Position numbers and translations under genes: made by a program. Source: a virus (lineage: Duplodnaviria; Heunggongvirae; Uroviricota; Caudoviricetes). Taken from it: a stretch of DNA of 64,000 nt. The notes beneath the pieces are model-generated. The model made no database searches, had not been told where the DNA came from, and saw nothing but the letters and a program-made list of their open reading frames with translations. The stretch lies in IMG/VR virus record IMGVR_UViG_3300028888_000113; one strand, written 5' to 3'. This document shows, piece after piece, positions 40,789 to 62,485 of this stretch. Numbering within the stretch: the stretch's first letter is position 1; each line of letters opens with the position of its first letter.

Positions 40789-42459
40789 ATGACAAAGAGC
40801 TTAGATTTTAAAGAAATCCTTGTTCGCAGACCGATATATAAGGTCTTGCCAAGTGACTCAAATTTGAAGTTTGAGACTTACCAAGGTAACGACATGTCGG
40901 AGCCGGATGATCCGCTGAAACTGCAAGTCTATACGCAGTCTCAGATGCTCCGCGAGTATTATCCATCTGGACACAACATCAACAATCCGATTCTGTACCC
41001 TGATGTGTGGAAGAAGGCACCCGTGCCTGGAAAGCCGGGTAAAGCACGCTATTTCCGTCAGCCTATTACCCGCGTAGCACTGGCTTTCCAGAGAATCATC
41101 AAGGTAAAGGCCAATGTTCATATCTGTGGTAATGATGCACAGTTTGAACTCGCATCACATGAGAAAGACGAGTTGAAGACTCTTGAGAACACCCTGCATC
41201 TGCTTGAGTTCAAAGAGGGATGGCTCACAATGGGGATGGAGGAACGTATGTATGATGCCGTTGACTCTATCCATACCGTTTCTGATGCCGCATTAGTAGG
41301 GTATTTCGACGAAGACGGAAACCCGCAAGCAAAGGTATTCTCTTTCATTAATGGTGATAAACTATATCCGCATTACGATTCCATCACGGGAAAGATGAAA
41401 CTCTTCGCACGTAAGTACCGTGACCTTGATGAAGACGGTAAGAGCACGACAGAGTATGTTGAGGTGTGGGATGACAAATTCCTCTACAGATACAAACGTG
41501 ACATTTCGAGCAATGAGCTATTCGAGAAATTCAGAGGTATCTTCGGACTCAATGGATTCAAACAGGTCGGCGAGCCTGTAGAACACGGCTTCCCATTCAT
41601 TCCTGTTGCTTATCATGTCAATATCGAAGGTCCAGTATGGGCATTCTCTCAGGACACCATCGAGAAATATGAGGAAGCAATGTCTTACTTCTTTGAGAAC
41701 AACAAGGCATACGCTTTCCCGATATTCTATGCAAAAGGTAAAGGCGTTAAGATCAGCGGCAGCATGAACGGTGCAGTCAAGGCAGTAGCCATCAGCGATC
41801 CGAAGGGAGAGGCAGGCTTCTTGAATCAGGCCGATGTGTCTGCATCTTACAATACCTTGCTCACGAAGCTCTACGATCTTATCTATGAGCAGTCGTTTGC
41901 AGTGAAGCCTCCCGAATTGAAGTCTGGCGACCTGCCAGGCGTAGCCGTCAAACTGCTGTTCAGCCCTGCTATCGAACTGGCAATAGGTGGAGTTGCGCAC
42001 TATCAGGATTTCCTTGAGCAGTGTGTCCGCATCGTCAAATACGGATGGGGCTTCAAGATCGGAAAGCCTGCATCATTAATGAATCTGCCTATCAAGGCAT
42101 GGCTTGAGCCTTATATCCATCAGAATGACTCCGAGTTGATGCAGAACCTTCAAATCGGTGTTCAGAACGGCTTTATCTCCAAGCAGACAGCATCAGAGAG
42201 AGCATCCAAGTACACAAAGAATGATGAAGTGGATCGTATTCTCAAGGAATATAAGCAGAAGCAGGAACTTGATCTTCTCTACGAGATAAAGAAAAAGAAG
42301 GCAGAAGTCGAAGCAGAGATAGAGAAATTAAAGCAGACATCGAAGATACAGGCCAAGCAGGGCAATGTGCGCACTGGCAATGGCCGCACACGGACAACCG
42401 ACGAGAACGGCAATCATCCAGGAGAGAATAATTGGGAAGAATGGGACAAAAATCACTAA
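40789..42459 (+). CDS. Portal protein
   Basis: 556-aa ORF immediately after terL. Size and position typical. Confidence 0.55.
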   Translation: MTKSLDFKEILVRRPIYKVLPSDSNLKFETYQGNDMSEPDDPLKLQVYTQSQMLREYYPSGHNINNPILYPDVWKKAPVPGKPGKARYFRQPITRVALAFQRIIKVKANVHICGNDAQFELASHEKDELKTLENTLHLLEFKEGWLTMGMEERMYDAVDSIHTVSDAALVGYFDEDGNPQAKVFSFINGDKLYPHYDSITGKMKLFARKYRDLDEDGKSTTEYVEVWDDKFLYRYKRDISSNELFEKFRGIFGLNGFKQVGEPVEHGFPFIPVAYHVNIEGPVWAFSQDTIEKYEEAMSYFFENNKAYAFPIFYAKGKGVKISGSMNGAVKAVAISDPKGEAGFLNQADVSASYNTLLTKLYDLIYEQSFAVKPPELKSGDLPGVAVKLLFSPAIELAIGGVAHYQDFLEQCVRIVKYGWGFKIGKPASLMNLPIKAWLEPYIHQNDSELMQNLQIGVQNGFISKQTASERASKYTKNDEVDRILKEYKQKQELDLLYEIKKKKAEVEAEIEKLKQTSKIQAKQGNVRTGNGRTRTTDENGNHPGENNWEEWDKNH

Positions 42460-44593: not shown

Positions 44594-46117
44594 TTAATCG
44601 TCTTCTTTTATGAATGTTCCTTTTTCTTCTATGTAATCTACTTGCATATTCGCATCGTGAATGATGAATGGCTCTGCAAGACGTTCCTCGTTGCAGCCAT
44701 AGATAATGTACCTGTAGCCCTCGGCGAAGTGCTGCTTTGCAAACCCGAACTTTCCCATCGTATGCCCGAACTTTTGACGTGACGGCACTTCTGCCTCATT
44801 GTCATTACAGAACCGCACAAGACTCTCGTAGAGGTCTGCCGTCGGTATCTTCACGGATTCCTCATGAAGTGCGCCTGGCTCCTTGCGCATCTGATAAGAG
44901 TTGATCCATGCGATGACGGGATTCATCTGCAACTGAGCAAGCAATATCTGTCTTCTGTTTCCTTCCGATGAAGGGAATACAAACTTCCTGCGCTTCAACT
45001 CCCTCGATCCTCTCAGAATCCAGTTGAAGATACCGGGGTACTCAGCCACCAACTCCCGCGACAAAGCAGGATTCTGCTTATCCTTCGGGATGGTAATCTC
45101 AAAGGATATGAACTGCAAGCGCCTGATGAAACCCAAACTCTGATCGTCAGAGTAGGGCAGCTCGTTCAGATTGAAGATCAAGAAGGGAATATTGTAATTC
45201 TCCTTCACGTCCTCGCCCAGCTTCCTGTCCGTCACACTCTCACCTGATACGATGCGCTTGAAGACACCTGTGCGCTTGCGTCCGAACGTCCGCTGGTCAG
45301 AGTCAGAAGACCAGTTGAAGATGGCTTCTCTCAGCAAGCGTCTCGCCCTCATTCCTTCATCACCCGTAGCCGTCAGGTCATCATAGTCCAAGCCAGAGAT
45401 TCTTTCCTTACCGAAGATGCCGATTGCAGTATCATAGATGGTACTCTTTCCGTTGGCACCAGCACCAAGCAGGATAAGGCACAATTCTATCTTTGCAGCA
45501 TTCTTGCCCTCATAAGGATTATAGACAGTACCACGCTCCATCAATCCCAAGCCTAAGAACATCTGCAGTATCAGACGGCTGTTTTTATCGGGCAGGACCT
45601 CATGGAGAAAGTTATTCCACTTGTTACACTTGGCCTTCTCGTTGTACTCGTAAGGATGGTAGTAGGTCACATGGAACCTCGGACTGAAATCATACAGGCG
45701 GTACTCTCTCAGGTCCAGTACACCATTCTTGAAGGCAATGAGATCATGCCTCGGCAGAAGCGGATTGAAGTACCTGATGACATCGGTGAAGTATTTCTTG
45801 CAGACACCTTTATCACCAATCATCGGCACTATCCTCAGATGCTCCAGCAGCAAGTCATAGGCGGCTACAATCAGTTCCTCCCTGATAGTGACATATATCT
45901 TGTCATCATACATATAGAACTCACCATCATAATACTTAATGTTGCAGTCCTTTGCCAACAGCCTTACCTTCTCAATGAAGTCGAGTTTCTTATCAAGGTA
46001 TGCCTCAGATGTCTTATAGCCCCAACGGCCCTTGAACTTCTCAAAGTTGAAGTCGCCATTGGAACACTGCCTAAGCAGACCTCCGTAAATCTTATCTATA
46101 ACTGTACTGTCTCTCAT
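44594..46117 (-). CDS. Phage/plasmid primase-helicase (P4/D5-type, P-loop NTPase)
   Basis: Walker A LLGAGANGKST plus a D5_N-like region. Start trimmed to Met (46115-46117) to avoid overlap with the tRNA-like element. Confidence 0.65.
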   Translation of the reverse strand: MRDSTVIDKIYGGLLRQCSNGDFNFEKFKGRWGYKTSEAYLDKKLDFIEKVRLLAKDCNIKYYDGEFYMYDDKIYVTIREELIVAAYDLLLEHLRIVPMIGDKGVCKKYFTDVIRYFNPLLPRHDLIAFKNGVLDLREYRLYDFSPRFHVTYYHPYEYNEKAKCNKWNNFLHEVLPDKNSRLILQMFLGLGLMERGTVYNPYEGKNAAKIELCLILLGAGANGKSTIYDTAIGIFGKERISGLDYDDLTATGDEGMRARRLLREAIFNWSSDSDQRTFGRKRTGVFKRIVSGESVTDRKLGEDVKENYNIPFLIFNLNELPYSDDQSLGFIRRLQFISFEITIPKDKQNPALSRELVAEYPGIFNWILRGSRELKRRKFVFPSSEGNRRQILLAQLQMNPVIAWINSYQMRKEPGALHEESVKIPTADLYESLVRFCNDNEAEVPSRQKFGHTMGKFGFAKQHFAEGYRYIIYGCNEERLAEPFIIHDANMQVDYIEEKGTFIKEDD

Positions 46118-46132
46118 TATTTCAAATTTTTG

Positions 46133-46218
46133 TAGGGGAGGGGAGGCTCGAACTCCCAACCTAACGTTCACGACGTTGCTCTACCAATGTCAGACTACCG
46201 ACTTATAGCTACTCCCCG
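46133..46218 (-). tRNA. Atypical tRNA-like element (type-II-length, possible pseudo-tRNA or att-site tRNA remnant)
   Basis: Canonical T-arm GGGAG-TTCGAGC-CTCCC. 7-bp acceptor CGGGGAG/CTCCCCT (1-72 C.U). D-arm GCTA-TAAGTCGG-TAGT. I could not fold a canonical anticodon arm. Candidate AACG-TCGTGAA-CGTT (GTG). Confidence 0.35.
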
Positions 46219-50605: not shown

Positions 50606-50645
50606 ATTAGGTAGGGATTTTTCCCTACCCAATTTTTTTTGTACC
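50606..50645 (+). terminator. Intrinsic terminator (GGTAGGGA-TTTTT-TCCCTACC + T9)
   Basis: Perfect 8-bp stem followed by CAATTTTTTTTTG. Confidence 0.7.
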
Positions 50646-50767
50646 AATTTTTTCTGTAATGCAGCCAGGTCAGCAGATCTGAGAGTCACAAGCCTCTATG
50701 AATTGCAGAGTGCAGGAGAAACGGGCGAGCCGAACGAACAGCCCGAACAATTAAAACGAACGAACGA

Positions 50768-51067
50768 ATGAATTATTTGAACGAACAATTCTCTGAGTTG
50801 GCAGTTATCAGCCACAGAGAGACGGGAGAACGGATTGAGGTTTGGCCAGGTTTATTTATGAATCTGTCATTCCCAGTTGTAGAGTTGACGAACGCAGGAA
50901 GAACTTATCTTCGTGCTCTCTGCAAAGACTATTGTGCAGATAAAGTTACTGCAGACGAGGTTGTGAACAATTTCCGCCTGATTGCTGAAACGATAGACTC
51001 TGGCTACACACTTGAGATTCAAGACAAATTTGGAAGTGAGTTTACGAAACTTTTACTTGAAAATTGA
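50768..51067 (+). CDS. Hypothetical protein
   Basis: 99-aa ORF. Confidence 0.35.
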   Translation: MNYLNEQFSELAVISHRETGERIEVWPGLFMNLSFPVVELTNAGRTYLRALCKDYCADKVTADEVVNNFRLIAETIDSGYTLEIQDKFGSEFTKLLLEN

Positions 51068-51073
51068 ACGACT

Positions 51074-51289
51074 ATGTTAGCAATTGTAGCAGAAAGATTT
51101 CTCAGATGCGCACAGCGTCATCTTGACGAGGCAAAAGGATGGTTAGAAATCGCTGAACAAAGAGACGATCTGTTTGGTAAACGGTACGCGAACAAGAAAA
51201 CCGAGTGGCATCTTGATATGGCCCGTTACTGGCAGATGGCAGCGAACAATCTACATTATGTTCCTGGCACATGGGCATATAAATTCTGA
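51074..51289 (+). CDS. Hypothetical protein
   Basis: 71-aa ORF. Confidence 0.3.
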   Translation: MLAIVAERFLRCAQRHLDEAKGWLEIAEQRDDLFGKRYANKKTEWHLDMARYWQMAANNLHYVPGTWAYKF

Positions 51290-52157
51290 ACACAGAGCAC
51301 ACGGAGTACGATTCTCCGTGTAATGTGGCTCACCTCACGGTGAACGGTTGCAAGCCCGTATAAACAGCATTCAAATGGTTAGATCGTAGGTGGAGACCGA
51401 TGGCGTACTCAGTACGAAGTAGGAATAGCCACCGCCACGCAGAAGAAACCGAGAGGTACGAGAGTACGATGACCGACTTACACGGGCGTTAGGCCGCAGT
51501 GATTTCGAGAGTACGATGTGAGCGAGCATTACCTGTAAGGGGAGTATTCGGGAACGATGGCAGTCGGAGTTTAACGATTGCAAGTGGTGTGCCAAAAGCC
51601 CCTGTGTTCCAACAAATCATATTCTTTAGATTATTTCTCCCGTGAGGGAGTACGATAATAACGGCTGGCTACTTGCCGAGTACGACTTGAGCAATCAAGT
51701 ACGATAATATCAGCGGATATTTCGTGGTGGTTCCCGTCGAAAGTACGATAACACATTTAATCACTTTAGGATGTATCGAGCCGCGTGCTTGAGCTGCATG
51801 ACACCCCACCGCCGTAGATGGATTTGATGTTCGTCTGGACGTGTAGAGGAATCTTGCAGATAAGTACGATGAACGGCTGCAATGAAAGATATTAATGGGT
51901 GAGATACCCACAGCATAAAGAACGGCCTGGCAGATGACCTAATCTGCCAATATCCCACGGTTGCGGCAAAGATGCCCTGCTTAGTCAGGAAAGTCGCAGG
52001 AGAATTAACGAAGTGGGAGAGACTACGGGAGAGAGTACGATGCTCTGAGATATGCGGCCCTCCAAAAGCTAACAAGCTGGAGGTGTTTATGGACCGCGAA
52101 CTATACTCGAAGACGCGCTGCTCTCTCTTTCTACAAACCATTTAAATAAGTACGATT
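51290..52157 (+). repeat. Non-coding region with ~11 dispersed same-orientation copies of AGTACGAT(G/A/T)
   Basis: Exact AGTACGAT at 51305, 51463, 51510, 51649, 51698, 51742, 51863, 52034 and 52149. Variants at 51411 (AGTACGAA, inside palindrome CGTACTCAGTACG) and 51679 (AGTACGAC). First copy sits in the loop of hairpin CACGGAG-TACGATT-CTCCGTG. No + strand ORF of 60 aa or more. Confidence 0.6.
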
Positions 52158-52367
52158 ATGAAACAGAGAATTATTTTGCATCTGACTATGTTCGTAGTCC
52201 TGATGCCTTGTTTGCTTGTGTTCAATGTCAGCAATGATTGTTGGATTAACCTGCTTGGTCTCATTTACTGCTGCTATCTTATTATCGTGTTGAATGAGAG
52301 TAAGAGAGCGCAGAAGTTTGTACGTCGTTACTATCATGAGATTCTTCGCTTGGAGAGCATGATGTAG
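52158..52367 (+). CDS. Small membrane protein
   Basis: 69 aa, two hydrophobic segments. ATG directly preceded by the last AGTACGATT copy. Confidence 0.35.
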   Translation: MKQRIILHLTMFVVLMPCLLVFNVSNDCWINLLGLIYCCYLIIVLNESKRAQKFVRRYYHEILRLESMM

Positions 52368-52436
52368 TCTGCCTGATATTTGTGGCGAAAAAGCTGCAAA
52401 TATCGCTCATGTTTAACCAACTAAAATGATTGATTT

Positions 52437-52706
52437 ATGGCAAAGTTAGATTTACTTAAAAAGGCCGCTCAGATTCTCAGAAAGAGCGACCATTATCTGA
52501 GGAACAAAGAGAGTAATTTCTCCAGCAGATTCGATTTTGTTCAGAACAAACAGAACGGCGCAATCAGTGTGTTCAATGCAGAGAAGGATAACGATCTATT
52601 CCTGTGGGATGATTATCTAAATTGTGTTGTCGGTGCTCTTGGTTTGAGTCACTACATCACGGTTGACAAGTTTGATGTAAAGAAGCTTGTGTACTACATC
52701 TATTAG
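52437..52706 (+). CDS. Hypothetical protein (cassette-array gene)
   Basis: 89-aa ORF bounded by the stereotyped intergenic module. Confidence 0.35.
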   Translation: MAKLDLLKKAAQILRKSDHYLRNKESNFSSRFDFVQNKQNGAISVFNAEKDNDLFLWDDYLNCVVGALGLSHYITVDKFDVKKLVYYIY

Positions 52707-52764
52707 TCTCTCTTGGCTGGCTTGCATGTCAGCCAACAAGTAATAACCACTAAAAACAAAGATT

Positions 52765-53019
52765 ATGAAAAAGAAGTTATTTGCGACAAATGCGATTTTC
52801 CGCTGTATTGTCACGCTCAAGAACGGATTCCACAAGACTCTGAGGCTGACCATCGACAAGGTGGCCATGTTCAACGCTGCATTCAAGCAAGTAAAGGAGG
52901 TTGGTCTGCTTAACGCCCGTTACACTGAGTTCATGAAGAAGATAGAATTGAACGGCTACGAGATCAAGTCGTGCAAGTTCTTCAACGAGAGGACGGGAGA
53001 GTTATTCCTGAGCCTGTAG
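52765..53019 (+). CDS. Hypothetical protein (cassette-array gene)
   Basis: 84-aa ORF. Stop TAG followed by TCT-hairpin-box. Confidence 0.35.
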   Translation: MKKKLFATNAIFRCIVTLKNGFHKTLRLTIDKVAMFNAAFKQVKEVGLLNARYTEFMKKIELNGYEIKSCKFFNERTGELFLSL

Positions 53020-53539
53020 TCTTATTTGCGGCCCGCGTGGCCGTACAATTCAACCAAACTGATAGATTATGAATATCTTCAAAGTATTGAAGCACAAGAG
53101 CGGCTTTTGGTACGTTGGCAAACTGCTGACTGTTGACCCTGATGGTGTTCCTGTATATCAGAGACTATCAGAGCTGTATTGTTACAGAGGATGGGCACTG
53201 AATTTTGCCCGTCGTATGTGTATCAAGTTATCGTAGCCTTTTCGGCATGGGTGGGTTTTATTCGTTCGTTCGCCTGCCTGTGCTGCTACAAACCAATTCT
53301 ATATAATTATGCCACAACAGAGATTTATTATCATGTACGAGGATCTGTACTACACTACAGAGCCGCCAGTGTGGGGACCTACGTTCACACCGAACAAAGA
53401 GAAGGCCCACATGTTTTCATCTGAGAGCGAGGCACGTAAGAAAGCCGACGATCTTGCTACGTTCCGTCTTTCTGTTTTGCCTGTTTAGTCTCTTTTCGGC
53501 TCTTGCAAGGGCCGAACTATTCACCAAATTTTTAGAATC

Positions 53540-53938
53540 ATGAATATTGTAGATCAGATTATGAACGAGTATCGTCAGAGACCGAATCATGGGATCCAGT
53601 TTTCCATTGAGTCCGAAGCGTATAAGTGTAGGGTGGGGGACAGGGTTTCCTTTGGCGACAATACTACCGTGTTGCAGTGTGGGAGTTTCTACAACTACCA
53701 GGACATTATCCTTGACGGCAATGTCATAGGTTATCTTGAAGAGGTACAGAGTGGCAGGCTGTTCGACCCGATGACTATTTCATTCGTCATCCCGATTGCC
53801 GACTGCTCAGAGCAAGATGTATGGGAAAAGATGCTTGTACAATTCGCCGGCAATCCACATCTGAGTGACGAGGGCGAATCTCTTGTGTTGCGCTTCGCCA
53901 CACTGAATCAGATCCTTGACCACCTCTCAATCAATTAG
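53540..53938 (+). CDS. Hypothetical protein (cassette-array gene)
   Basis: 132-aa ORF. Confidence 0.35.
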   Translation: MNIVDQIMNEYRQRPNHGIQFSIESEAYKCRVGDRVSFGDNTTVLQCGSFYNYQDIILDGNVIGYLEEVQSGRLFDPMTISFVIPIADCSEQDVWEKMLVQFAGNPHLSDEGESLVLRFATLNQILDHLSIN

Positions 53939-53983
53939 TCTCTTGCAGCCGAACGGCTGCACTATTCACCAATACATACGAAT

Positions 53984-54292
53984 ATGAAAGCAATACAAGT
54001 CTTGAATTGGATTATCAAGCAAAGTATCTCAGGAGAAATCCTAAACTTTGTTGATGTCCCTGCTGAGAATGACGAGTTTACACCACAAACCGAAGAGTGG
54101 TGGACTGAGCAGTTTGGTTTTCCACCTCCAACACCAATCAAGGAAGGGAAATATCTCTACTATTACATGAGTTCTGAAATGGAATGGATTACTGATGAAA
54201 TAGGTTTTGAGCCTGATGTAACAATAGAGTTGCCAAATGAGGATAATATGTTTGGATCAGATCTTATTTACCTTTATCGCATGGAGGATTGA
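53984..54292 (+). CDS. Hypothetical acidic protein (cassette-array gene)
   Basis: 102-aa ORF. Confidence 0.35.
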   Translation: MKAIQVLNWIIKQSISGEILNFVDVPAENDEFTPQTEEWWTEQFGFPPPTPIKEGKYLYYYMSSEMEWITDEIGFEPDVTIELPNEDNMFGSDLIYLYRMED

Positions 54293-54517
54293 CTATGGCA
54301 AAGGCAAAACTCAAATGGCTCACGTTCACTGATAATCCTCAGTGGGGCCGTTATTTTATCGGAGAGAGCGACACCAGGAGCGAGGCCGTTGACAAAGGTA
54401 AGGCAGCAGGCAAAGGAAAGTTTGTCGTGGAGCGTCGCTACAAATGGAAGTAGTCTTGAGCGGTTCTTGCATGAGCCGCACAATATAACCTGAATATAAC
54501 CCAAATATAACCCGATT

Positions 54518-54766
54518 ATGATTGAAGTGAAGAAAACCACCTATATGGTGGATGGATGCCAGGAGCCTTGCTTTGAGGTTTCCGACGGCTACGCTATGGT
54601 CCGTATTGCAAAGATGTACCACTATATCGGTGGGAATACTCTTGCAATGAGTGAGTATCTTGATGGCGAGTGGAATGGCTCAGACGAGTGGGATGGAGAT
54701 TTCGATTCTCTCACGGAGTCAGACGCAAAGGCTCTTGCACTCAAGTATTCTGCTTATCTCGATTAG
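54518..54766 (+). CDS. Hypothetical protein (cassette-array gene)
   Basis: 82-aa ORF. Confidence 0.35.
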   Translation: MIEVKKTTYMVDGCQEPCFEVSDGYAMVRIAKMYHYIGGNTLAMSEYLDGEWNGSDEWDGDFDSLTESDAKALALKYSAYLD

Positions 54767-54824
54767 TCTCATTATCATTTTCGTGATGTCGCGAAAATGA
54801 TACAATAACCAATTATTTACGATT

Positions 54825-55313
54825 ATGGAATTACTTATCATTAACAACGCATTTGCAGATTGTTTCACTATCTGCATCGATTCAGAAGTAAGCGTAGGCA
54901 TTGAGCGGGCCAAGAAGTCTTATGAGCGTGACAAGGCTACATACGAAAGCCATCTTGTAAACTATCCGAACATGGCTGACCATTGGCAGTTTCAACTTGA
55001 CAAGACAAACAAAATCCTGCAATCCGGCTTCCGTGCCGTTACATGGGAAGAGTATTGCAAACTCCAGCGTGAAAGATGGCTTAGCAAAGAGCCGAAGGAG
55101 ATCACAGAAGAAGACTTTTACTACGCTTTAAATGTCCTGCCGCCTAAGAAATGGATCCGCAACGAGCGTTATTCCATGTTTTTCATTGGAGAATGTACTA
55201 CCATGACTTTCTATGGTCAGTATCTACAAGACAAGGAAAGCGGTAAATACTATTATGCCATGGCCGACATCTCCGACGAATCCACTTGGCTTGACAAGAT
55301 GCTTAATCTCTAA
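54825..55313 (+). CDS. Hypothetical protein (cassette-array gene)
   Basis: 162-aa ORF. Confidence 0.35.
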   Translation: MELLIINNAFADCFTICIDSEVSVGIERAKKSYERDKATYESHLVNYPNMADHWQFQLDKTNKILQSGFRAVTWEEYCKLQRERWLSKEPKEITEEDFYYALNVLPPKKWIRNERYSMFFIGECTTMTFYGQYLQDKESGKYYYAMADISDESTWLDKMLNL

Positions 55314-55333
55314 ACTTCCTGGCGATTATCGCC

Positions 55334-55708
55334 ATGAAGTACAACACACCAATATTTACGATTATGATTATTACAGAAGAAACAAAGAAACGCTTTATGC
55401 GTATGCTTGCTGACATGCAGATTATTGTCATTCAGCACAAGTGTCACCGTGCTTCTTACTTGTTCAAGTTTATCGGTGCCAACGATGCAGGCAAATGGGA
55501 TTTCACACCTATGGTTGTAGATGTTGCTGGTATCGAGTACAATGGCGAAATGAGCACGGAAAACCTATCTGTTTTAGGCAAGGATGCTGCAGACATTCTC
55601 ACCAAGGTTGTCAAGAAATTGATGTGCGGAGGTAATTGGATGTTTGCAGAGACCTACCACGAAATCTATGAGAAGGTTCGCGAGCATATCACAACCTTCT
55701 ATATGTAG
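55334..55708 (+). CDS. Hypothetical protein (cassette-array gene)
   Basis: 124-aa ORF. Confidence 0.35.
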   Translation: MKYNTPIFTIMIITEETKKRFMRMLADMQIIVIQHKCHRASYLFKFIGANDAGKWDFTPMVVDVAGIEYNGEMSTENLSVLGKDAADILTKVVKKLMCGGNWMFAETYHEIYEKVREHITTFYM

Positions 55709-55768
55709 CCTCTAATCATTTTCGTGACCTCACGAAAATGGTACATTAACCCCTAAAAATAAAAGAAT

Positions 55769-56098
55769 ATGGAAAATTCAATTATGACAGATGCAAAGCG
55801 CATCAACGAGATTACTGGCCGTCCGATGGCAGAGTGTGAGAAACAGGCTCAGCAGATTGCAGAGTGTATCAAGGAAATGAACAGTCGAATCGTTGAGTTC
55901 TACTACATGAAGAAAGATGGATCCAAGCGTCAGGCGTTCGGCACATTGCAGCCGGAGGTGATTGTTCCTATTATCAGTCAGGCACCAGAGCGCAAGCCTA
56001 ATCCCGACCTTGTGACGTACTACGACACAGAGGCACAGGCATTCCGTTCTTTCAAGAAGGTCAATTTCATCGAGTACGTCAAGCAATCTCAGGCATGA
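55769..56098 (+). CDS. Hypothetical protein (cassette-array gene)
   Basis: 109-aa ORF. Confidence 0.35.
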   Translation: MENSIMTDAKRINEITGRPMAECEKQAQQIAECIKEMNSRIVEFYYMKKDGSKRQAFGTLQPEVIVPIISQAPERKPNPDLVTYYDTEAQAFRSFKKVNFIEYVKQSQA

Positions 56099-56296
56099 AC
56101 AAGTTCGTTGTATATGCCTGGTGTTTCTTTCTTGCCTCACTGACATTCGGTATATGGACTATCCCGATGGTCATTGTGGCAGTACTATTGATTCTGTTTC
56201 TTCTCCGGAAGAAACCTGATTGGTTCAAATGAAAAGTCTCAAGCCGTGCAAAGGACACGGCACTCATTATGTTTCACCATTTAAAAAGAAAGAATT

Positions 56297-56770
56297 ATGA
56301 AAGAGATCAAGAAAACTATCGAGAGCTACAAGTATGTTTACGTTGCCATTGACGGAACAGAGTTCGAAGACAAGGAAGAATGCTGCAAGTACGAGCATAG
56401 TGCGAAAGGTGTAATTGTGACGAAGTTCTTGCCGCTTGTTGTAAAGCAGAAGACAGAGTTCGAGATTTTTGGTGCAGGGAATGATGATTCTATGATTAGC
56501 ATCGTGAAGCTCGAATCTAAGGAAGATGCAGACATAGTTCTGCAGCTCTATCTCCTGAACAATCCTTATATGGCCAAGGATGACAGAAAGAAAGATCTCG
56601 AAGCTATTGCTTCACGCATTCGTCGTGCTGCCGAGCAGAGAGATTACATCTTCATCGGTCACGGTTACGAAGGTGATGATTTTTGGTTTGCAGGAACACG
56701 CAATGAGCATATTGAATGCCTCAACAAAATCTGTGAGCCAGAGACCGAAACCAAAACTGCATCTGAGTAG
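56297..56770 (+). CDS. Hypothetical protein (cassette-array gene)
   Basis: 157-aa ORF. Confidence 0.35.
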   Translation: MKEIKKTIESYKYVYVAIDGTEFEDKEECCKYEHSAKGVIVTKFLPLVVKQKTEFEIFGAGNDDSMISIVKLESKEDADIVLQLYLLNNPYMAKDDRKKDLEAIASRIRRAAEQRDYIFIGHGYEGDDFWFAGTRNEHIECLNKICEPETETKTASE

Positions 56771-56821
56771 TCTTTATCTCCCTTTGCATAGGGAGAGCTT
56801 CTAACCACAAAATTATGAAAT

Positions 56822-57028
56822 ATGAAAAGAACTGAAATTGTATTAGAGTTTATGAAGGTTGTTGCTCCTGTTTTTGCTCAGCAGGGCAGTGCGTTAATCA
56901 AGCAGTTGGCCGACGCAGGTCACGATCCCAGTAAATGCACATCTGGCGGCATGGACTTGCTTCATGCTTATGCAAAGAGCGCAAGGGAGTGGGCCGAAGC
57001 TTTTGCAGACGAATACGAAAAGGATTAG
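56822..57028 (+). CDS. Hypothetical small protein (cassette-array gene)
   Basis: 68-aa ORF. Confidence 0.3.
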   Translation: MKRTEIVLEFMKVVAPVFAQQGSALIKQLADAGHDPSKCTSGGMDLLHAYAKSAREWAEAFADEYEKD

Positions 57029-57082
57029 TCTCTCCAGGAGCCTTAGCATAGGCTCCTACTATTCACCAAAACATTACAGAAT

Positions 57083-57589
57083 ATGAACAAAGACAAATCT
57101 ATCTACGCTTGCTATGAAGAAATCAAGCAACGTGAAATCAGTGAGCTAATGGAGAAAGTACGTCTCATGAAAGGACAATACGTTTTTCAAACTCTCGAAG
57201 CTCCATGCGTCTTGGTAAACTTCGACGATGGGCCGTGTGAAGATGTGCGTGTTGGCTCTGTTGAGATTCAAAATGTCAGTGAGACAGAGATCCTATGTAT
57301 CTTTGACACATTTGGAAATCAGATAAAGCTATCTGATATTGCCTACGGCCACATTGAGTTCATAACAGAGTCTATTCCATGCAGGACATTCTCACAAGAA
57401 AGTTTCTGTATATCAAGACTGAGCCGTGAAGACCTTGATAGCATAGGTTTTGATACGTCAGATATTGATGACAAGACAATGCAGAGACTTGCAGAGAAGC
57501 TTGGCGATGACTATTGTGAACAGTTATTCTGGACTTCGCTTGAGATTATTGCAGAGGAAGGGTTCAATATTCCCCGCAAAGAAGGATGA
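57083..57589 (+). CDS. Hypothetical acidic protein (cassette-array gene)
   Basis: 168-aa ORF. Confidence 0.35.
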   Translation: MNKDKSIYACYEEIKQREISELMEKVRLMKGQYVFQTLEAPCVLVNFDDGPCEDVRVGSVEIQNVSETEILCIFDTFGNQIKLSDIAYGHIEFITESIPCRTFSQESFCISRLSREDLDSIGFDTSDIDDKTMQRLAEKLGDDYCEQLFWTSLEIIAEEGFNIPRKEG

Positions 57590-57697
57590 TCCGAAGAGGA
57601 CGATGATGACGAATAGAAGTCATAATTGTAGTTTTTAGTTGGTTGAGGTGGGGCCGTTTACAGCGACCTCACCTTTCAATTATTCACCAAAAACTTA

Positions 57698-58177
57698 TTG
57701 AATATGAAAATTGACATTTGCAAAGTAACCAGTAATCCAGATTTCGCAAGGATGGCTGCAGAATATCTTGCATACTCATTGCAGGACGTGAAGACGTATC
57801 AAAACCTCACCCCAAAGGAGCGAGAGATTATCAGCGAGGAGATGTTCAATAGCATTCAGCATCTTGACACAAGACAAATGTTCACCGAATTGAAACAGAA
57901 ACACCCAGACGCAATCTTGCTTTTCAGAATAGGTGATTTCTATGAGGCTCGCGACAAAGATGCAGAAGTCTGCTCAAGCATCCTTGGCATCACGCTTACG
58001 GTCAGAACTAACGACAAATTGGCAGGCTTCCCACATCATGCACTTGATACATATCTGCCAAAACTCATTCGTGCCGGCCATCGTGTAGCCATCTGCGATC
58101 AGTTGGAGGATCCGAAAATGACAAAGAAACTCGTAAAACGAGGCATCACAGAACTTGTCAGCCCCAGACTTACTTAG
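57698..58177 (+). CDS. Stand-alone MutS domain I (mismatch-recognition domain) protein
   Basis: [24 protein letters not shown]...ITLT.R...[32 protein letters not shown] aligns to the E. coli MutS N-terminus (HPEILLFYRMGDFYELF...PMAGIPYHAVENYLAKLV..GESVAICEQ..DP), including the mismatch-contacting Phe-x-Glu. 159 aa with no ATPase domain. Confidence 0.7.
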
Positions 58178-58233
58178 CCTCAGCCATTTTCCCATTATCG
58201 GGAGAATGGTGCTCTAACCAAAATTTTAAGAGT

Positions 58234-58929
58234 ATGAAAGAAAGAACGTTTTTACCCGTGAACTGTTGGGCAGCGGAAGATATTCCATCCAACAAAATCA
58301 TTGATGCAAATCCTGAGAATCTGAGCAATGCAGAGTTGCTTTCGATTATCCTTGGTACAGGTTCCGACAAAGAAACATCTGTTGACTTGGCGAGAAGGAT
58401 TCTCATGTCTTGCGACAATAATCTTGCAGAACTCTCTAAGAAAACACCTCGCCAACTCACATATATGCGTGGTGTCGGCAAGCAGAAAGCTGCAAAGATT
58501 ATTGCAGCAATGGAACTCGGAAAGCGCAGGCAGAATCAAATACTGTCTGATAAGCCTGACTTGGGTACGGCTTGCCGTATCTACAATCACATGCACCCAA
58601 TCATGCAGGATCTCGACGTTGAAGAGTTCTGGTGCCTTTTTATAAATCGTAACTACAAACTTATCAAGAAGTTCCGAGTGTCGAGAGGTGGACTTACAGA
58701 AACAGCCGTAGATATTCGTATCATCATGCGTGAGGCCGTTGTCTCAAATGCGACAATCCTTGCAGTATGTCACAATCACCCGTCTGGAAATCTTACTCCA
58801 TCTAAGTGTGATGACGAACTTACAACGTCAATCAAGCGTGCTTGTGAAGTAATGAGAATCTATTTCCTGGATCACGTTATCATTACAGATGGCGCATACT
58901 ACAGTTATCATGAGCAAGGGCGCATTTAG
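58234..58929 (+). CDS. radC: RadC-like JAB/MPN domain protein
   Basis: N-terminal HhH-like ELLSIILGTGSD and the catalytic JAMM motif HNHPSGNLTPSKCDDELT. Confidence 0.75.
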   Translation: MKERTFLPVNCWAAEDIPSNKIIDANPENLSNAELLSIILGTGSDKETSVDLARRILMSCDNNLAELSKKTPRQLTYMRGVGKQKAAKIIAAMELGKRRQNQILSDKPDLGTACRIYNHMHPIMQDLDVEEFWCLFINRNYKLIKKFRVSRGGLTETAVDIRIIMREAVVSNATILAVCHNHPSGNLTPSKCDDELTTSIKRACEVMRIYFLDHVIITDGAYYSYHEQGRI

Positions 58930-58990
58930 TCTTCTTTTTGACCACCTTTTTGACTGAGGTGGTCAAAACCATAACCAAACTTTTACGAAT

Positions 58991-60283
58991 ATGAATAAAA
59001 AAGATTTATTGAGTTATTGCTGGAAGCATAGTCTGTTCGGCAATGTCGTAACAACCGACGGGAAGAGTGTTGACATTTTAGATCCAGGATTGCACAATCG
59101 CAACGAAGGGCCTACGTTTTTCAATGCGAAAGTCAGATTCAACAACACTCTTTGGGTGGGTAACGCTCAGATTCTCGTAAATTCCTCAGATTGGTACTTG
59201 AATAGTTTTGATCGTAATCATAAGTACGACAATGTTATTCTTATCATCTGTGACATCGTGGACTCAGAGGTTACAAACTCGAAGGGTGAGACTATTCCGA
59301 TAGCACAAGGCATTATTCCTGAGAATGTCACTCGCAACTGCAATACTCTCATGGGACTTGGCGGCGATTTCCTCTGTCATAGTTATGTCATGGAGTATTC
59401 TACGACACTTATGCGTCATGCGTGGTTGTCTGCTATGCAAACAGAATGGCTTGAGCAGAAGACTGAGCATCTACGTCAGATCTACCGTCAGAACAAATCA
59501 ATGGAAGACACGTTCTTTATCTCTCTGTTCAGCAGCTTTGGCTTTGGTGCCAACGATGATGTAATGGAGAAACTTGCAAATGCGGTTCCTATGAGTGTTA
59601 TTGACAATTATCGCGACGATCTGTTTCAGATAGAGGCCATCATCTTAGGCCAGGCTGGCTTGATTACAGACATAGAGTGTGTTCCAGAGAAGTTTCATGA
59701 TAAAACCTTGATGGAAGGATATTTTCAGAGACTCCGTAACGAGTATCTGTATCTTGCCCATAAGTATTCGATGAAACCAATCTCTGCAAGATTCAAGCCG
59801 TTCAACCGACGCTTCTCCAGCCCTCATGTGTACCTGTCGATGCTTGCAAACCTCATTTACAGAAGATCTATCAGCAGCAGCATAGTCACTGGTCTTGCTT
59901 CTGCAAAGGAAGTCATGGATCAGCTCTTCACAAAGGCTACTCCATATTGGGAAATGCACAATCAGTTTGGTGCCATTACAAACAAGACAGAGAAGAAACT
60001 GAGTTTCGATAAGATGTCGTACATCATGGCTGCTTCCATCGTTCCGTTCCTCTTCTTCTATGGAAGAGAGAAGTCTAATGAGGAAATCTGTGACCGTGCT
60101 TTCGACATCATGGAGCAGATGAAGGTTTTCTCTACTGCAGAATCATCGTCTTTCGCCAAGCACGGATTGGAGCCGGCTACAGCAGGAGATACGATTGCGC
60201 TAACTCAGATGAAACGTGAGTATTGCCAGAAGCACGACTGCCTGCGTTGTCGCTTTGGCTTTGAGTTCATTAGAAAGCATTAG
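58991..60283 (+). CDS. Conserved hypothetical protein (430 aa)
   Basis: Long ORF ending in a Cys cluster (CQKHDCLRCRFGFEF). No motif I can assign. Confidence 0.4.
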   Translation: MNKKDLLSYCWKHSLFGNVVTTDGKSVDILDPGLHNRNEGPTFFNAKVRFNNTLWVGNAQILVNSSDWYLNSFDRNHKYDNVILIICDIVDSEVTNSKGETIPIAQGIIPENVTRNCNTLMGLGGDFLCHSYVMEYSTTLMRHAWLSAMQTEWLEQKTEHLRQIYRQNKSMEDTFFISLFSSFGFGANDDVMEKLANAVPMSVIDNYRDDLFQIEAIILGQAGLITDIECVPEKFHDKTLMEGYFQRLRNEYLYLAHKYSMKPISARFKPFNRRFSSPHVYLSMLANLIYRRSISSSIVTGLASAKEVMDQLFTKATPYWEMHNQFGAITNKTEKKLSFDKMSYIMAASIVPFLFFYGREKSNEEICDRAFDIMEQMKVFSTAESSSFAKHGLEPATAGDTIALTQMKREYCQKHDCLRCRFGFEFIRKH

Positions 60284-60301
60284 TCTCTTAGAGAGCCTTG
60301 C

Positions 60302-60556
60302 ATGGCTCTCACTATAAACCAATCTAAAAGAATTATGGCATTATACACTGGAGAAGAAGCGAGGAAAATAGTTCACATGATTCTCGCTCATTACAATGAG
60401 GACAGCAAACGCTATCCTCTGTTTATTGGCTGTTGTGGCTACTTTGAGAATGAGGATGGCACTTGGTCCGCATGGGATAACATGACGGGCGACTGTTGGT
60501 GCGAGGATTTCAAGACCAAGAATGAGGCCATTGCCTACGTCGAAGAGTATCATTAG
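60302..60556 (+). CDS. Hypothetical small protein (likely starts at the internal ATG near 60335)
   Basis: The annotated ATG lies inside the intergenic hairpin loop (TTGCATGG). A downstream ATG has the array's usual AAGAATT-ATG context. Confidence 0.3.
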   Translation: MALTINQSKRIMALYTGEEARKIVHMILAHYNEDSKRYPLFIGCCGYFENEDGTWSAWDNMTGDCWCEDFKTKNEAIAYVEEYH

Positions 60557-60615
60557 TCTATCATGGTTGTGAAACATGCTTCACAACCATCAATCAACTT
60601 TTAAAACAAAGAATT

Positions 60616-61035
60616 ATGAACAAAGTAGATTTAAGAAACGGCCTTGACTATTGCCGTAACTATATGATCTCGCAACTCACTCAGTATGTTCTTGAGCATG
60701 GTGAGGAAATGTGTGATTATTATCGTAACGAACATGGTATAGATGATGACGAGGTTCTTAAACTTATAGACCTCGCTGACTGCGGTTGCTATTTCTCGTT
60801 GCCACAGAAGTTCCAGGCAGAGAATAATGAAGATGATTACGAACATTCTGCTTTCTGGACGTTATATGTAATTAGGGAAAGCGATGGCGAGATCAATTTG
60901 ATGTATTATCGTTTCTATAACTACGGATTTGATTTCGACGATGAACTATCTGAGCCTGATCACGACTATGCAGCCAGCCTTCCTATTTCGGCACTGGAGT
61001 ATATATATGAAGCCGTCCTATCGATTCCAGATTAA
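60616..61035 (+). CDS. Acidic hypothetical protein (last cassette-array gene)
   Basis: 139-aa ORF followed by a terminal copy of the intergenic module (CTGCCGA-TTCG-TCGGCAG, TAACAACCAAA). Confidence 0.35.
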   Translation: MNKVDLRNGLDYCRNYMISQLTQYVLEHGEEMCDYYRNEHGIDDDEVLKLIDLADCGCYFSLPQKFQAENNEDDYEHSAFWTLYVIRESDGEINLMYYRFYNYGFDFDDELSEPDHDYAASLPISALEYIYEAVLSIPD

Positions 61036-61117
61036 GTCTTTTTAACTGCCGATTCGTCGGCAGTGCTAACAACCAAATAGTAAACTATATTCAAAATTGT
61101 ACAGAATGTGCGTTCGC

Positions 61118-61382
61118 TTGTGCCCTTCACTTGTGCCCTTGATTTCTCAAAGTGCATGTGTTTATCGGTGTTTAGTTGTGCCCTTTGTTGTGCCCTTTAA
61201 CTGGTAAATAATTGACAAATATTGCTTAGATATAATGTATTTTGTAAATAATATTTATAAAATATCGAATTTCTTTCCGAAGTCTTTACAAAATATGCCA
61301 CTTGGGCACAGCAAAGGGCACGGCGCTCTTTCTGATAATCAATGTGTTACAAGCATTTGGGGCACAACGTAGGGCACAAAAC
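61118..61382. promoter_or_regulatory. Second iteron locus / origin-like region: 4 direct TTGTGCCCTT + AT-rich spacer + 4 inverted AAGGGCACA
   Basis: TTGTGCCCTT at 61118, 61131, 61176 and 61187. ~100-bp AT-rich spacer. GGGCACA-type copies at 61304, 61314, 61359 and 61371. 61301-61380 is homologous to the iteron stretch 464-572 inside the rep-like gene. Confidence 0.55.
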
Positions 61383-61544
61383 GCGCGTGTATTTATAAGG
61401 TACGCACGTTAATATAATTATATAAATATATTAATATAATAATATAAAAATATAGGTTTCGATCCGAAGTTAAAATTGTGGTCTCTGGCTGTTAAATCTT
61501 CTAAAGCAGCACTATATTATAAAATAATATTATAACTTTGCATT

Positions 61545-62483: not shown

Positions 62484-62485
62484 TC

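Follow-up and report, generated by a model that had tools for sequence, protein, structure and literature searches.

What is an 870-bp stretch with few open reading frames and many irregularly dispersed copies of one short sequence doing in the genome of a tailed phage? In the window (the whole 64-kb stretch of DNA that was analysed) such a region is studded with the 8-base signal AGUACGAU. A first reading, made from the letters alone (hereafter the sequence-only reading), had offered three candidates, namely an array of binding or titration sites, a structured non-coding RNA with a reiterated motif, and a graveyard of degenerated cassette starts. We show here that the 870 bp encode a plus-strand structured non-coding RNA in the early or cargo operon of a temperate Prevotella phage, and we then consider what the reiterated motif could be for. 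The positions of all the features are collected in Table 1.

For the motif, we considered as expectation the number of AGTACGAT in dinucleotide shuffles of the whole 64-kb window, on both strands. This was 1.33 ± 1.33, the observed number was 10 (9 of them on the plus strand of 51305-52156), and none of 100 shuffles reached 10. In the same interval and strand there were 11 AGTACGA, since AGTACGAA (51411) and AGTACGAC (51679) add to the exact copies, in agreement with the approximately 11 same-strand copies first noticed, and GGTACGAG (51455) brings the number of GTACGA to 12; the minus strand of the region had none. The irregular spacing was also confirmed, with start-to-start distances of 8-171 nt and no regular period. 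Repeat finders gave for the region no longer or regular repeat unit and only short families of 10-31 nt, mostly based on the motif, and TRF gave trivial arrays of about two copies each; in agreement with the sequence-only reading, these are not the regular 24-48 bp repeats with unique spacers of a CRISPR. The region is richer in GC (0.485) than the 2 kb on its left (0.406) and on its right (0.435), as had been said, and both of the palindromes reported to hold motif copies were found, CACGGAG-TACGATT-CTCCGTG at 51300-51320 and CGTACTCAGTACG at 51404-51416.

The predicted 5′ edge of the non-coding RNA is a twister ribozyme of the circularly permuted type P5, which scored 43.0 bits against model RF02684 (gathering score 37.6), with E = 1.3e-5 when the whole window was searched and 3.2e-7 in a local search. 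Its P1 stem is CACGGAG/CTCCGTG, with motif copy 1 in the loop, and from the family consensus its cleavage is predicted at U51321^A51322. The first hairpin of the sequence-only reading is this P1 stem, a fact that it missed together with the probable twister further upstream. In 28 loci, i.e. all the homologous loci with enough upstream DNA, a matching element precedes the GGTGGTTCCCG block by 374-670 nt. We retrieved 22 distinct variants by a pattern that itself requires most of the core, and the core (..GAGCA.., U^AAUG.GGC, GUUGCAAGCC) was invariant in the 17 variants that were aligned. P1, P3 and P4 folded in 17/17 variants in spite of many different stem sequences, P2 (CACA/UGUG) was invariant, and for the two pseudoknots, T1 and T2, the complementary segments GGC-GCC and GCA-UGC were seen, with no variation in the 17. 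The P1 loop bears the motif in 11 of the 22 variants and is a GCAA loop in several others.

A second element, 50653-50716, was treated as a probable twister of type P1 because of its low E-value, its full-model coverage and its conservation in relatives: the RF03160 match had 53.6 bits and E = 1.3e-10, and stayed below the high gathering score of 67.2. Its cleavage is predicted at U50657^A50658; of 18 homologous loci, at least 13 have the element too, 400-790 nt ahead of the second twister. Just before it, after the 183-aa ORF, stands a terminator-like hairpin with a T-run, and analogous hairpins and T-runs can be read at the same place in loci L066 and L023. The two twisters enclose two small ORFs (relatives have one or two at this place), for which tblastn found homologues in 12 (99 aa) and 5 (71 aa) loci, with no Pfam or PHROG match. 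No other ribozyme was found in 52000-58500, nor any tRNA or tmRNA in the region. Both elements share with the known twisters (clan CL00120; RF02684, RF03160) the core, the P1/P2/P4 stems and the U^AA cleavage context, and bacterial twisters are known from prophages, with which the location agrees. The difference is that twister sequence is here only 69 nt plus 64 nt of the locus, that two permutations bracket small ORFs, and that one of them heads a large structured RNA; no description of such a two-twister arrangement was found in the literature searched.

Table 1. Features of the non-coding RNA locus, with positions in the window.
Feature	Position	Strand	Remark
Terminator-like hairpin, then T-run	50610..50629	+	consensus scan
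Probable twister ribozyme, type P1	50653..50716	+	Rfam RF03160
Two small ORFs enclosed by the twisters	99 aa 50768-51067; 71 aa 51074-51289	+	ORF list
Twister ribozyme, type P5 (circularly permuted)	51291..51359	+	Rfam RF02684
Exact AGTACGAT, starts	51305, 51463, 51510, 51649, 51698, 51742, 51863, 52034, 52149	+	
Motif copy 1, AGTACGAT, facultative	51305..51312	+	loop of twister P1
Variable 5′ domain	51360..51611	+	poorly alignable (alignment A3)
Motif copy 2, AGTACGAA	51411..51418	+	pairable with upstream CGTACT (inverted repeat I3)
Motif copies 3 and 4, tandem GGTACGAG-AGTACGAT	51455..51470	+	
Motif copy 5, AGTACGAT	51510..51517	+	
Conserved structured 3′ domain	51612..52157	+	alignment A5
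Invariant block AAATCATATTC	51614..51624	+	20/20 sequences
Motif copy 6, constitutive	51649..51656	+	18/20 homologues
Motif copy 7, AGTACGAC, facultative	51679..51686	+	6/20; GAGAGCGACT in others
Motif copy 8, constitutive	51698..51705	+	15/20 homologues
Invariant block GGTGGTTCCCG	51726..51736	+	20/20 sequences
Motif copy 9, constitutive	51742..51749	+	20/20; GTACGA invariant
Invariant block CATTTAATCACTTTAG	51754..51769	+	
Motif copy 10, facultative	51863..51870	+	7/20 homologues
Invariant block GAGACTACGGG	52019..52029	+	
Terminal hairpin GGGAGAGAG...CTCTCTCTT, expanded in the window	52027..52129	+	
Motif copy 11, top of terminal hairpin	52034..52041	+	site occupied in 5/20
Motif copy 12, abuts ATG at 52158	52149..52156	+	site occupied in 8/20
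69-aa hydrophobic ORF, first gene after the RNA	52158..52367	+	ORF list

Homologues of the region were found in approximately 30 loci of rumen metagenomes and Prevotella MAGs; the twister is present in all those with upstream sequence and a conserved ORF in none. The absence of a credible ORF, claimed at first for the plus strand, holds on both strands: the minus-strand ORFs of 126, 80 and 74 aa were rejected as genes, being conserved in neither length nor frame, and so was the ORF starting from the GAATATG block. Variable columns of the 20 homologues were distributed over the codon positions as 0.67/0.73/0.68, with no 3-nt periodicity. For the 126-aa ORF, tblastn did give 'hits', which are due to nothing more than conservation of the nucleotide sequence.

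Two domains follow downstream of the twister. The variable 5′ domain, whose length in the homologues is 194-394 nt, carries in the window copies 2 to 5 (starts 51411, 51455, 51463 and 51510). The 3′ domain, of approximately 500 nt, has eight invariant blocks, in a neighbourhood whose proteins are only 40-80% identical among the homologues. Precisely, in alignment A5 (20 non-redundant sequences) we considered 109 pairs, of which 93.4% of cells were paired, compared with 36-43% when the partners were slid, and the covariation score was 0.266 compared with about 0.05 in the slid controls. Compensatory changes were seen at 43 pairs, a number reached in none of 500 shuffles; covariation in homologues had been named as a check, and its outcome, with the twister, the number of loci and the sense-only enrichment of the motif, bears out the structured non-coding RNA. 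The whole 868-nt plus strand folds with z = -4.1.

With the Rfam 15 models, ROOL and GOLLD included, no match at gathering score was obtained on 51360-52157, and at E < = 10 there were three matches of chance level only, none of them to a large RNA. Deposited phage genomes had no nucleotide similarity to the locus in either near or distant mode, a locus search by the 99-aa neighbour gave no relatives, and the RNA is not described in the papers found by searching for the motif, or for twister combined with phage, Prevotella or rumen. It appears to be a new and uncatalogued family, which would join a very short list of large structured RNAs of bacteria and phages, and such size and conservation usually signal sophisticated biochemistry.

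The motif copies of the 3′ domain have a precise relation to its fold. Copy 6 is directly 3′ of the covarying hairpin CTCCC-GTGA-GGGAG (helix 3), whose compensatory changes include TCGCA/TGCGA and CTCATC/GATGAG. In copy 8 the AGT closes the hairpin ACTTG..CAAGT and the ACGAT opens the next helix, with five compensatory pairs in each of the two helices (6 and 7), and in copy 7 the ACT is the 5′ arm of the next hairpin. The terminal hairpin includes helix 23, with seven compensatory pairs. The three constitutive copies have fixed positions next to covarying hairpins, where partial base-pairing is predicted for them, in a structural context that differs among the three. The facultative copies are in loops, at sites with an occupancy of 25-50%.

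This arrangement bears on whether the copies act as DNA. An array of DNA sites (origin iterons, a partition site or titrating operators, perhaps bound by the nearby primase-helicase) would be in keeping with short, irregular repeats of the same orientation in a non-coding region located 5 kb from a conserved primase gene; in P4, ori and crr hold an 8-bp iteron bound by the P4 primase-helicase. We consider it highly improbable, given that the region holds an RNA-only device, the twister, and a fold with 43 compensatory pairs, that the copies respect helix boundaries and loops, and that their strand bias is absolute. Moreover, at a GC of 0.485 there is no AT-rich unwinding element, the scanned neighbouring genes include no Rep or ParB gene, and in related phages the motif stands at a fixed 19-31 nt before gene starts, beside hairpins whose G.U tolerance is limited to the sense strand (see below). 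Nor does the 8-bp unit at 8-171 nt fit an iteron or parS-like array, in which direct repeats, usually of 17-22 bp and regularly phased, are bound as double-stranded DNA and adjoin an AT-rich region and a Rep or ParB gene. Of the earlier proposal of a binding or titration array, then, the DNA form is not supported and an RNA-level form, a multivalent docking RNA, is kept.

The motif is, on this distributional evidence, under selection in its own right, because in the non-alignable variable domain (5.1 kb in 19 non-redundant homologues) AGTACGA occurs 28 times against 0.92 expected, a 30-fold enrichment, and its reverse complement TCGTAC once, and because the loop sites are only partly occupied and one locus (L069) has gained copies, three in number, by internal duplication. 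The conserved part is AGTACGA; GATAAT sometimes follows on its 3′ side and is not conserved. We set aside a host-promoter reading (Bacteroidota -33/-7, or a TATAAT-like box) since the conservation is limited to AGTACGA, and a Chi-like site is disfavoured by the fixed distance that the motif keeps from start codons.

The motif is also found in a wider group of phage contigs that share a related primase, those closest to the window being from Prevotella. In the more distant phages nearly every small early gene is preceded by an RNA hairpin and AGUACGAUA. In related phage contigs a hairpin of 12 bp with a 6-nt loop, closed by A(C/U)U..AGU and followed by ACGAUA, lies 19-31 nt before the starts. 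The strand bias of this module is 163:16, and its hairpins have 59 G.U versus 8 A.C on the sense strand, compared with 263 versus 219 in controls. On account of this bias and of the sense-strand G.U excess, we infer that the module acts as RNA in the related phages. The two clades differ in the distribution of the motif: in the distant one the array head has a small cluster, each unit has a single copy, and most small genes bear the motif in their mRNA leaders; in the window clade many copies are at the array head and none in the intergenic units, and among leaders the motif is present only at the gene, or genes, that immediately follow the RNA. When the first 168 nt of the conserved domain were made into a covariance model, it found nothing in 71 other loci, L023 and L052 included; the distant motif clusters are therefore not callable homologues, and the link consists of the shared motif and hairpin.

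The likeness of the three constitutive units (hairpin and AGUACGAUAAUA) to the gene-start modules of the distant relatives, minus the genes, together with the turnover of motif positions, is what would be left by a graveyard of decayed gene-start cassettes that no longer have a function. An origin of the region from hairpin-motif gene-start units is plausible. As a description of the present state we give the graveyard next to no credence: covariation has already largely refuted it, the eight invariant blocks and the compensatory changes in 20 homologues denote strong purifying selection and structural constraint among proteins that diverge far more, and the twister is always kept at the 5′ edge.

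The RNA sits upstream of an array of roughly 20 genes with TAGTCT and a hairpin after nearly every gene. Its start contexts were thought to resemble the motif; this is right for a few starts, at which ACGAWT-ATG is found, and not for the usual context, which is RAWT-ATG after AACCA. The last motif copy does directly abut an ATG, as first described. Translation in Bacteroidota involves little Shine-Dalgarno pairing. Two of the invariant blocks could meet the gene junctions of the array. The core of AAATCATATTC, UCAUAUUC, is complementary to the start consensus GAAUAUGA, and 51614-51624 had a mean duplex energy of -5.8 with 18 start regions, compared with -2.4 ± 0.9 for the shuffled block (0/300 as good). 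Within 52019-52029, GAGACTA is the reverse complement of the signature TAGTCTC found at the stop codons of the array genes. The block GGTGGTTCCCG is predicted to pair with GAGACTAC in an invariant pairing (helix 8).

These complementarities raise the possibility that the RNA is a giant cis leader, in which the start region would be sequestered or released by long-range pairing, of UCAUAUUC with GAUUAUGA and of 51369-51380 (just after the twister) with its candidate partner 52136-52147, governing translation of the 69-aa product. In the RNAalifold prediction, UCAUA meets the UAUGA further downstream in 19-20 of 20 sequences, and a 12-nt inverted repeat, 92% complementary, joins the 5′ and 3′ ends, with a duplex of -13.8 in 17 homologues versus -11.6 ± 0.64 shuffled. 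A small hydrophobic ORF is always the next one, and the motif abuts its ATG in a part of the homologues (Table 1). Still, the start pairing has no covariation, both sides being invariant, and UAUGA is the start context of most phage genes, so the complementarity is not gene-specific. The following ORF, moreover, comes from different families: homologues of the 69-aa ORF follow the RNA in 13 loci, and in L066 and L074 its place is taken by another small hydrophobic ORF. Finally, 800 nt and 8-12 motifs far exceed what occlusion of a start codon needs, and we regard this reading as quite unlikely.

An RNA-only machine, i.e. a ribozyme or a self-assembling ornate RNA, would explain the 3′ domain in another way, with AGUACGA as a helix-junction or tertiary module, or as a site of intermolecular GUAC contacts, instead of a protein site. 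Several of the eight invariant blocks are outside Watson-Crick helices, the fold is multi-junction with strong covariation, and the constitutive copies are exactly at helix ends, GUAC being palindromic. ROOL and GOLLD, too, are large (0.6-0.8 kb), multi-junction and highly conserved prophage RNAs whose function is little known. The cow rumen is where ROOL was first seen (PMC5737381), ROOL and GOLLD form RNA-only assemblies (PMC12286853), and the RNA described here resembles them in size (0.7-1.0 kb) and in its occurrence in phages and in the rumen (PMC5737381, PMC12286853). Against this, the Rfam search gave no sequence or structure match to either even at E < = 10, and the host phylum differs from that of GOLLD (Prevotella here, while GOLLD is named for Lactobacillales). 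Neither a ribozyme-defined 5′ end nor a reiterated 8-nt motif, both of which this RNA has, is known to be a feature of ROOL or GOLLD. In addition, the motif occurs in three structural contexts, many copies are facultative and in unconstrained loops or in the variable domain, and in other phages it precedes ordinary genes. An RNA-only machine is thus, in our judgement, unlikely.

We tentatively favour, with a probability of about 0.4, that the twister-processed RNA is a multivalent docking platform that controls the downstream hairpin-punctuated array. During transcription of the operon, the type-P5 twister would cut itself at its predicted site, going by the chemistry of the twister family, and would give an RNA with a 5′-OH end and an upstream message ending in the P1 hairpin and a cyclic phosphate. 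The released RNA would consist of the fast-evolving 5′ domain, the ornate 3′ domain and the terminal hairpin before the next gene, and it would show 8-12 sense copies of AGUACGA(U), three fixed by hairpins and the rest gained and lost in loops and linkers. AGUACGA beside a helix could be the recognition element of a trans-acting factor, most likely a protein acting on nascent or mature early transcripts, and the RNA could then be the docking platform of the factor that reads it. In the variant that we favour, it would be a cis-acting pad for loading the factor at the array head, for processive antitermination, protection or processing; alternatively, it would be a sponge titrating the factor.

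There is evidence against the docking platform as well. The search for a binding protein among the neighbours gave no informative Pfam or PHROG match, and no phage gene resembling N, Q or Nus was identified. The 183-aa protein encoded upstream is conserved, is a member of a narrow family without annotation and has no Pfam match; its AlphaFold model (pLDDT 83.6) had a best PDB match at E = 0.3, hence no fold match. Partly paired constitutive copies in three contexts would suit a structural role equally, a plus-strand hairpin that tolerates G.T could in principle act as single-stranded DNA, and the tie to the distant gene-start modules is limited to motif and hairpin. A simple sponge has the further difficulty that almost no mRNA target in the window clade bears the motif.

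The docking platform has partial counterparts in known systems. As in CsrB/RsmZ, many copies of a short motif (12 in 868 nt, enriched beyond composition, the facultative ones in loops) are in loops and linkers, with the number kept while the positions drift, and in the related phages the motif is also in mRNA leaders near the starts. The differences are that the motif is AGUACGA and not GGA, that no CsrA-like partner is known here, that the RNA is of much greater size and its structured core is invariant, and that it is in an operon and would be ribozyme-released. Should the RNA be a docking platform or a sponge, phages would have in it a counterpart of CsrB-type regulation. With the boxB-boxA (nut) sites of rrn and lambda, and with put of HK022, the unit shares a variable hairpin and a conserved linear element, orientation specificity, and the position at the head of a long hairpin-rich operon, where the nascent sense transcript would be read; by this analogy the differences are the lack of boxA similarity and the 8-12 copies, compared with one or two. 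The PeSL (promoter-early stem-loop) cassettes of T4-type phages likewise part small early genes by a stem-loop unit of approximately 70 nt, which plausibly aids modular shuffling. The conserved linear elements here, AGUACGAUA and AUUAUUCACCAA, do not seem to resemble the host promoter consensus; moreover, the hairpin behaves as sense RNA and the 870-nt RNA has no PeSL counterpart.

The roles of bacterial twisters are, to our knowledge, largely unknown, and two differently permuted twisters at conserved positions of a phage operon make such a role directly testable. The early regulation of these phages is, as far as we know, poorly understood too, and AGUACGA with an RNA hairpin emerges as a widespread expression signal in phage contigs with a related primase.

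Three more speculative variants were considered. The RNA could be a master regulator of a new type, released by a ribozyme, with about 10 AGUACGA docking sites and pairing with the conserved junctions of every gene in the array, in cis or in trans (UCAUAUUC-GAAUAUGA at starts, GAGACUA-UAGUCUC at stops, and GUGGUU-AACCAC); it would coordinate the processing or translation of the roughly 20 cargo genes, and we find it improbable. The reiterated AGUACGA may instead be a decoy against a host RNA-targeting toxin: its sequence is that of the 5′ half of AGUACGAGAGGA, the sarcin-ricin loop of 23S rRNA, and the window bears GGUACGAGAGUACGAUGACC at 51455-51474. Finally, the twisters may free a 664-nt mRNA (50658-51321) with 5′-OH and cyclic-phosphate ends, circularised by RtcB, a naturally occurring equivalent, if so, of the engineered 'Tornado' design.

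The 64-kb window contains 10 copies of the 8-base motif AGTACGAT, and nine of them fall within 51305-52156 on the + strand. With both strands of the whole window counted, 1.33 +/- 1.33 copies are expected (10 reached in 0 of 100 shuffles), so the cluster reported by the sequence-only reading lies far beyond chance. As also reported there, the copies share one orientation: within the region, the relaxed form GTACGA has 12 copies on the + strand, and the - strand has none. The spacing is indeed irregular, and repeat finders run on the region reported neither a longer nor a regular repeat unit. Both hairpins quoted at that stage are present, the last copy adjoins the ATG at 52158, and the region is richer in GC (0.485) than its flanks (0.406 and 0.435).

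Homologues were collected from primase-anchored loci and from a metagenome scan for a pair of invariant blocks (GGTGGTTCCCG N8-30 ATTTAATCAC), which gave about 30 loci, for the most part from rumen metagenomes. From the twister ribozyme to the next start codon the RNA is 682-1031 nt long, with a poorly aligning domain of 194-394 nt 3′ of the twister and then a conserved domain, roughly 500 nt in length, with the invariant blocks AAATCATATTC, GGTGGTTCCCG, GTACGA, CATTTAATCACTTTAG, GAAAGA, ATAAAGAA, AACGAAG and GAGACTACGGG. The RNAalifold structure of 20 non-redundant sequences has 109 pairs, in which 93.4% of the cells are paired (36-43% with partners slid by 1-3 columns), 43 pairs show compensatory changes (equalled in 0 of 500 shuffles) and the covariation score is 0.266 (about 0.05 in the slid controls). 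The absence of a credible ORF holds as well: no conserved ORF was found on either strand across the homologues, and the substitutions have no codon periodicity. The region is a sense-strand, structured, conserved RNA starting with a twister, and the earlier candidate of a structured non-coding RNA with a reiterated motif was the right one. An array of DNA sites is improbable, being contradicted by the RNA-level constraints, and a functionless graveyard of degenerated gene starts, contradicted by the conservation, is more improbable still. In an Rfam search of the region, even at E <= 10, twister was the sole family matched, and no description of the RNA was found in the literature searched; at 0.7-1.0 kb, it appears to be an undescribed family, so far limited to rumen Prevotella phages.

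The twisters had been overlooked. The type-P5 twister scores 43.0 bits in Rfam (gathering score 37.6); the hairpin CACGGAG-TACGATT-CTCCGTG is its P1 stem, with the first motif copy in the P1 loop. By the consensus for twisters (Roth et al. 2014), cleavage is predicted at U51321^A51322. A second, probable twister, of the differently permuted type P1, lies upstream (53.6 bits, E = 1.3e-10, under that family's high threshold), and the two enclose two small ORFs (99 and 71 aa). The type-P5 twister was found in all 28 loci with enough upstream DNA, 374-670 nt upstream of an invariant block; among 17 aligned variants the core nucleotides are invariant, and P1, P3 and P4 fold with many sequences. At least 13 of 18 loci have the type-P1 twister, 400-790 nt upstream of the second one and separated from it by one or two small ORFs. 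The more distant loci L023 and L052 carry a type-P1 twister at the equivalent position, then about 600 ORF-free nt with the blocks AATCATATTCTTTA and GGTGGTTCCCG, common to the window RNA. With these twisters, a known ribozyme class gains new members. By the predicted cuts, the fragment between them would be 664 nt long, with 5′-OH and 2′,3′-cyclic phosphate ends; ends of this chemistry are substrates for ligation by RtcB, and therefore a circular mRNA is possible.

Positions of the features in the window
Feature	Position	Strand	Remark
2001-aa ORF	18690-24695	-	structural module
Tape-measure protein	25770-32318	-	
Major head protein	36158-37555	-	
Large terminase	39086-40777	+	
Portal	40789-42459	+	
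Primase	44594-46171	-	
Terminator-like hairpin	50610-50629		directly before type-P1 twister
Type-P1 twister	50653-50716	+	
Inter-twister fragment (predicted)	50658-51321		
ORF-poor region	51290-52157	+	
Type-P5 twister	51291-51359		
12-nt inverted repeat	51369-51380 / 52136-52147		92% complementary
GGUACGAGAGUACGAUGACC	51455-51474	+	
Invariant UCAUAUUC	51617-51624		
Invariant GUGGUU	51726-51731		
Invariant GAGACUA	52019-52025		
Array with intergenic units	52365-62487	+	
Array-end cargo genes	57698-60283, 61545-62483	+	
Integrase	62486-63712	-	adjoins tRNA-Gly

Three motif copies are constitutive among 20 homologues (51649 in 18, 51698 in 15, 51742 in all 20), each lying at the 3′ end of a hairpin with compensatory changes. 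The remaining copies are facultative, each in 25-50% of the homologues: in the twister P1 loop (11 of 22 variants, several others having a GCAA loop), in the loop of the GGCAG..CUGCC hairpin, at the top of the terminal hairpin, in linkers and at the spot abutting the next ATG. Across 5.1 kb of non-alignable 5′ domain from 19 non-redundant homologues, 28 copies of AGTACGA were observed against 0.92 expected, with a single copy of the reverse complement TCGTAC; of the most strongly enriched words, none except the motif and the variants that overlap it is found repeatedly in a single sequence. In the homologue L069, about 94 nt are duplicated internally (about 2440-2560, - strand) in a segment with three motif copies, which added three more (14 GTACGA in total). 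Facultative turnover, sense-strand enrichment and this gain of copies therefore show that the motif is selected as such, for its presence on the sense strand of the RNA and largely independently of position. GGUACGAGAGUACGAUGACC is similar to the sarcin-ricin loop of 23S rRNA, AGUACGAGAGGACC, whose 5′ half equals AGUACGA; this is probably a coincidence, because AGU is Watson-Crick paired in the gene-start units.

Scanning viral contigs for three nearby motif copies gave about 20 with irregular same-strand clusters, nine of them encoding a related primase. A fixed module precedes most of their small genes, precisely a hairpin (typically a 12-bp stem and 6-nt loop, closed by 5′-A(C/U)U...AGU-3′), ACGAUA and then AUUAUU(C/A)ACCAA, with the ATG 19-31 nt past the motif. 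It occurs in contigs L005, L013 (for example at 3540-3620), L018, L019 (11340-11410), L042, L048, L061 and L062, where it stands before nearly all small genes, with AUUAUUCACCAA after ACGAUA. The strand bias of the module in distant contigs is 163:16, and its hairpins have 59 G.U against 8 A.C on the sense strand (263 against 219 at random positions); they therefore act as sense-strand RNA, less likely as + single-stranded DNA. In related phages the motif together with a hairpin thus serves as an RNA element where genes begin, and the module, of which the literature searched gave no description, looks like a signal for gene starts that works at the RNA level throughout the clade.

The intergenic unit of the window clade (TAGTCTY, hairpin, (A)CTATTCACCAA, 10-14 nt, ATG) lacks AGTACGA. 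In the window array, nearly all genes end with TAGTCT(C/T), followed by a variable hairpin, (A)CTATTCACCAA or TTAACCAA, 10-14 nt and RAWT-ATG; this repeated unit, some 70 nt long, resembles the PeSL cassettes known from T4-type phages. The motif distribution in the two groups is complementary: the window clade carries many copies at the array head and none between genes, the distant clades a few at the head and a single copy for each gene. Two motif-bearing contigs contain other elements: L033 a c4-2 antisense RNA of the P1/P7 immunity type (6057-6130, - strand; RF02944, 63 bits), and L018 a GC-rich, ORF-free stretch (8440-8700, + strand) upstream of a gene array, with a tRNA-like 3′ end (GGTTCGATTCC...) in which ARAGORN called neither tRNA nor tmRNA.

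Judging from the family chemistry, the type-P5 twister would self-cleave at 51321/51322, giving the RNA a 5′-OH end and leaving the upstream message with a terminal hairpin. We propose, with a probability of roughly 0.4, that helix-adjacent AGUACGA is read by a trans-acting factor, the RNA being its multivalent docking platform. Our preferred variant is a cis-acting loading pad that would serve the long array with its punctuating hairpins, in function comparable to the boxB-boxA or put signals of antitermination; a CsrB-like sponge is the alternative. Against docking, family and fold searches found no partner for AGUACGA among the neighbouring proteins, and structure prediction leaves the constitutive copies partly paired, in contexts that are unlike each other; it is also weakened because a covariance model of the first 168 nt of the conserved domain gave no connection to the distant clades. 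An RNA-only machine or assembly, like ROOL and GOLLD, is unlikely.

Somewhat less likely is that the RNA is a giant leader with control over the small hydrophobic ORF that follows it. Invariant UCAUAUUC is complementary to GAAUAUGA at array-gene starts, with a duplex energy of -5.8 against the start region (-2.4 +/- 0.9 for the shuffled block, 0 of 300), and the inverted repeat offers a possible closing helix for the entire RNA, its post-twister arm pairing with the AACCA element that precedes the next gene; a comparable 5′/3′ duplex across 17 homologues is somewhat stronger than in shuffled controls. However, neither pairing covaries, and the start context is common to most genes. Invariant GUGGUU is likewise complementary to AACCAC of the intergenic units, and GAGACUA is the reverse complement of UAGUCUC, the stop signature of the array genes.

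The prophage in the window is temperate and siphovirus-like; from about 50.0 to 62.5 kb its + strand carries an array of small genes, and the region is part of this array. The closest genome matches of its primase are two Prevotella MAGs from roe-deer rumen and abomasum (82% and 73% identity). The 2001-aa ORF has zero Pfam matches. At the array end, host-like-looking cargo genes (a MutS domain-I-only protein, RadC, DUF2851 and a short integrase-family protein) carry the phage TAGTCT stop signature, and the main integrase and tRNA-Gly that follow probably mark the prophage end.
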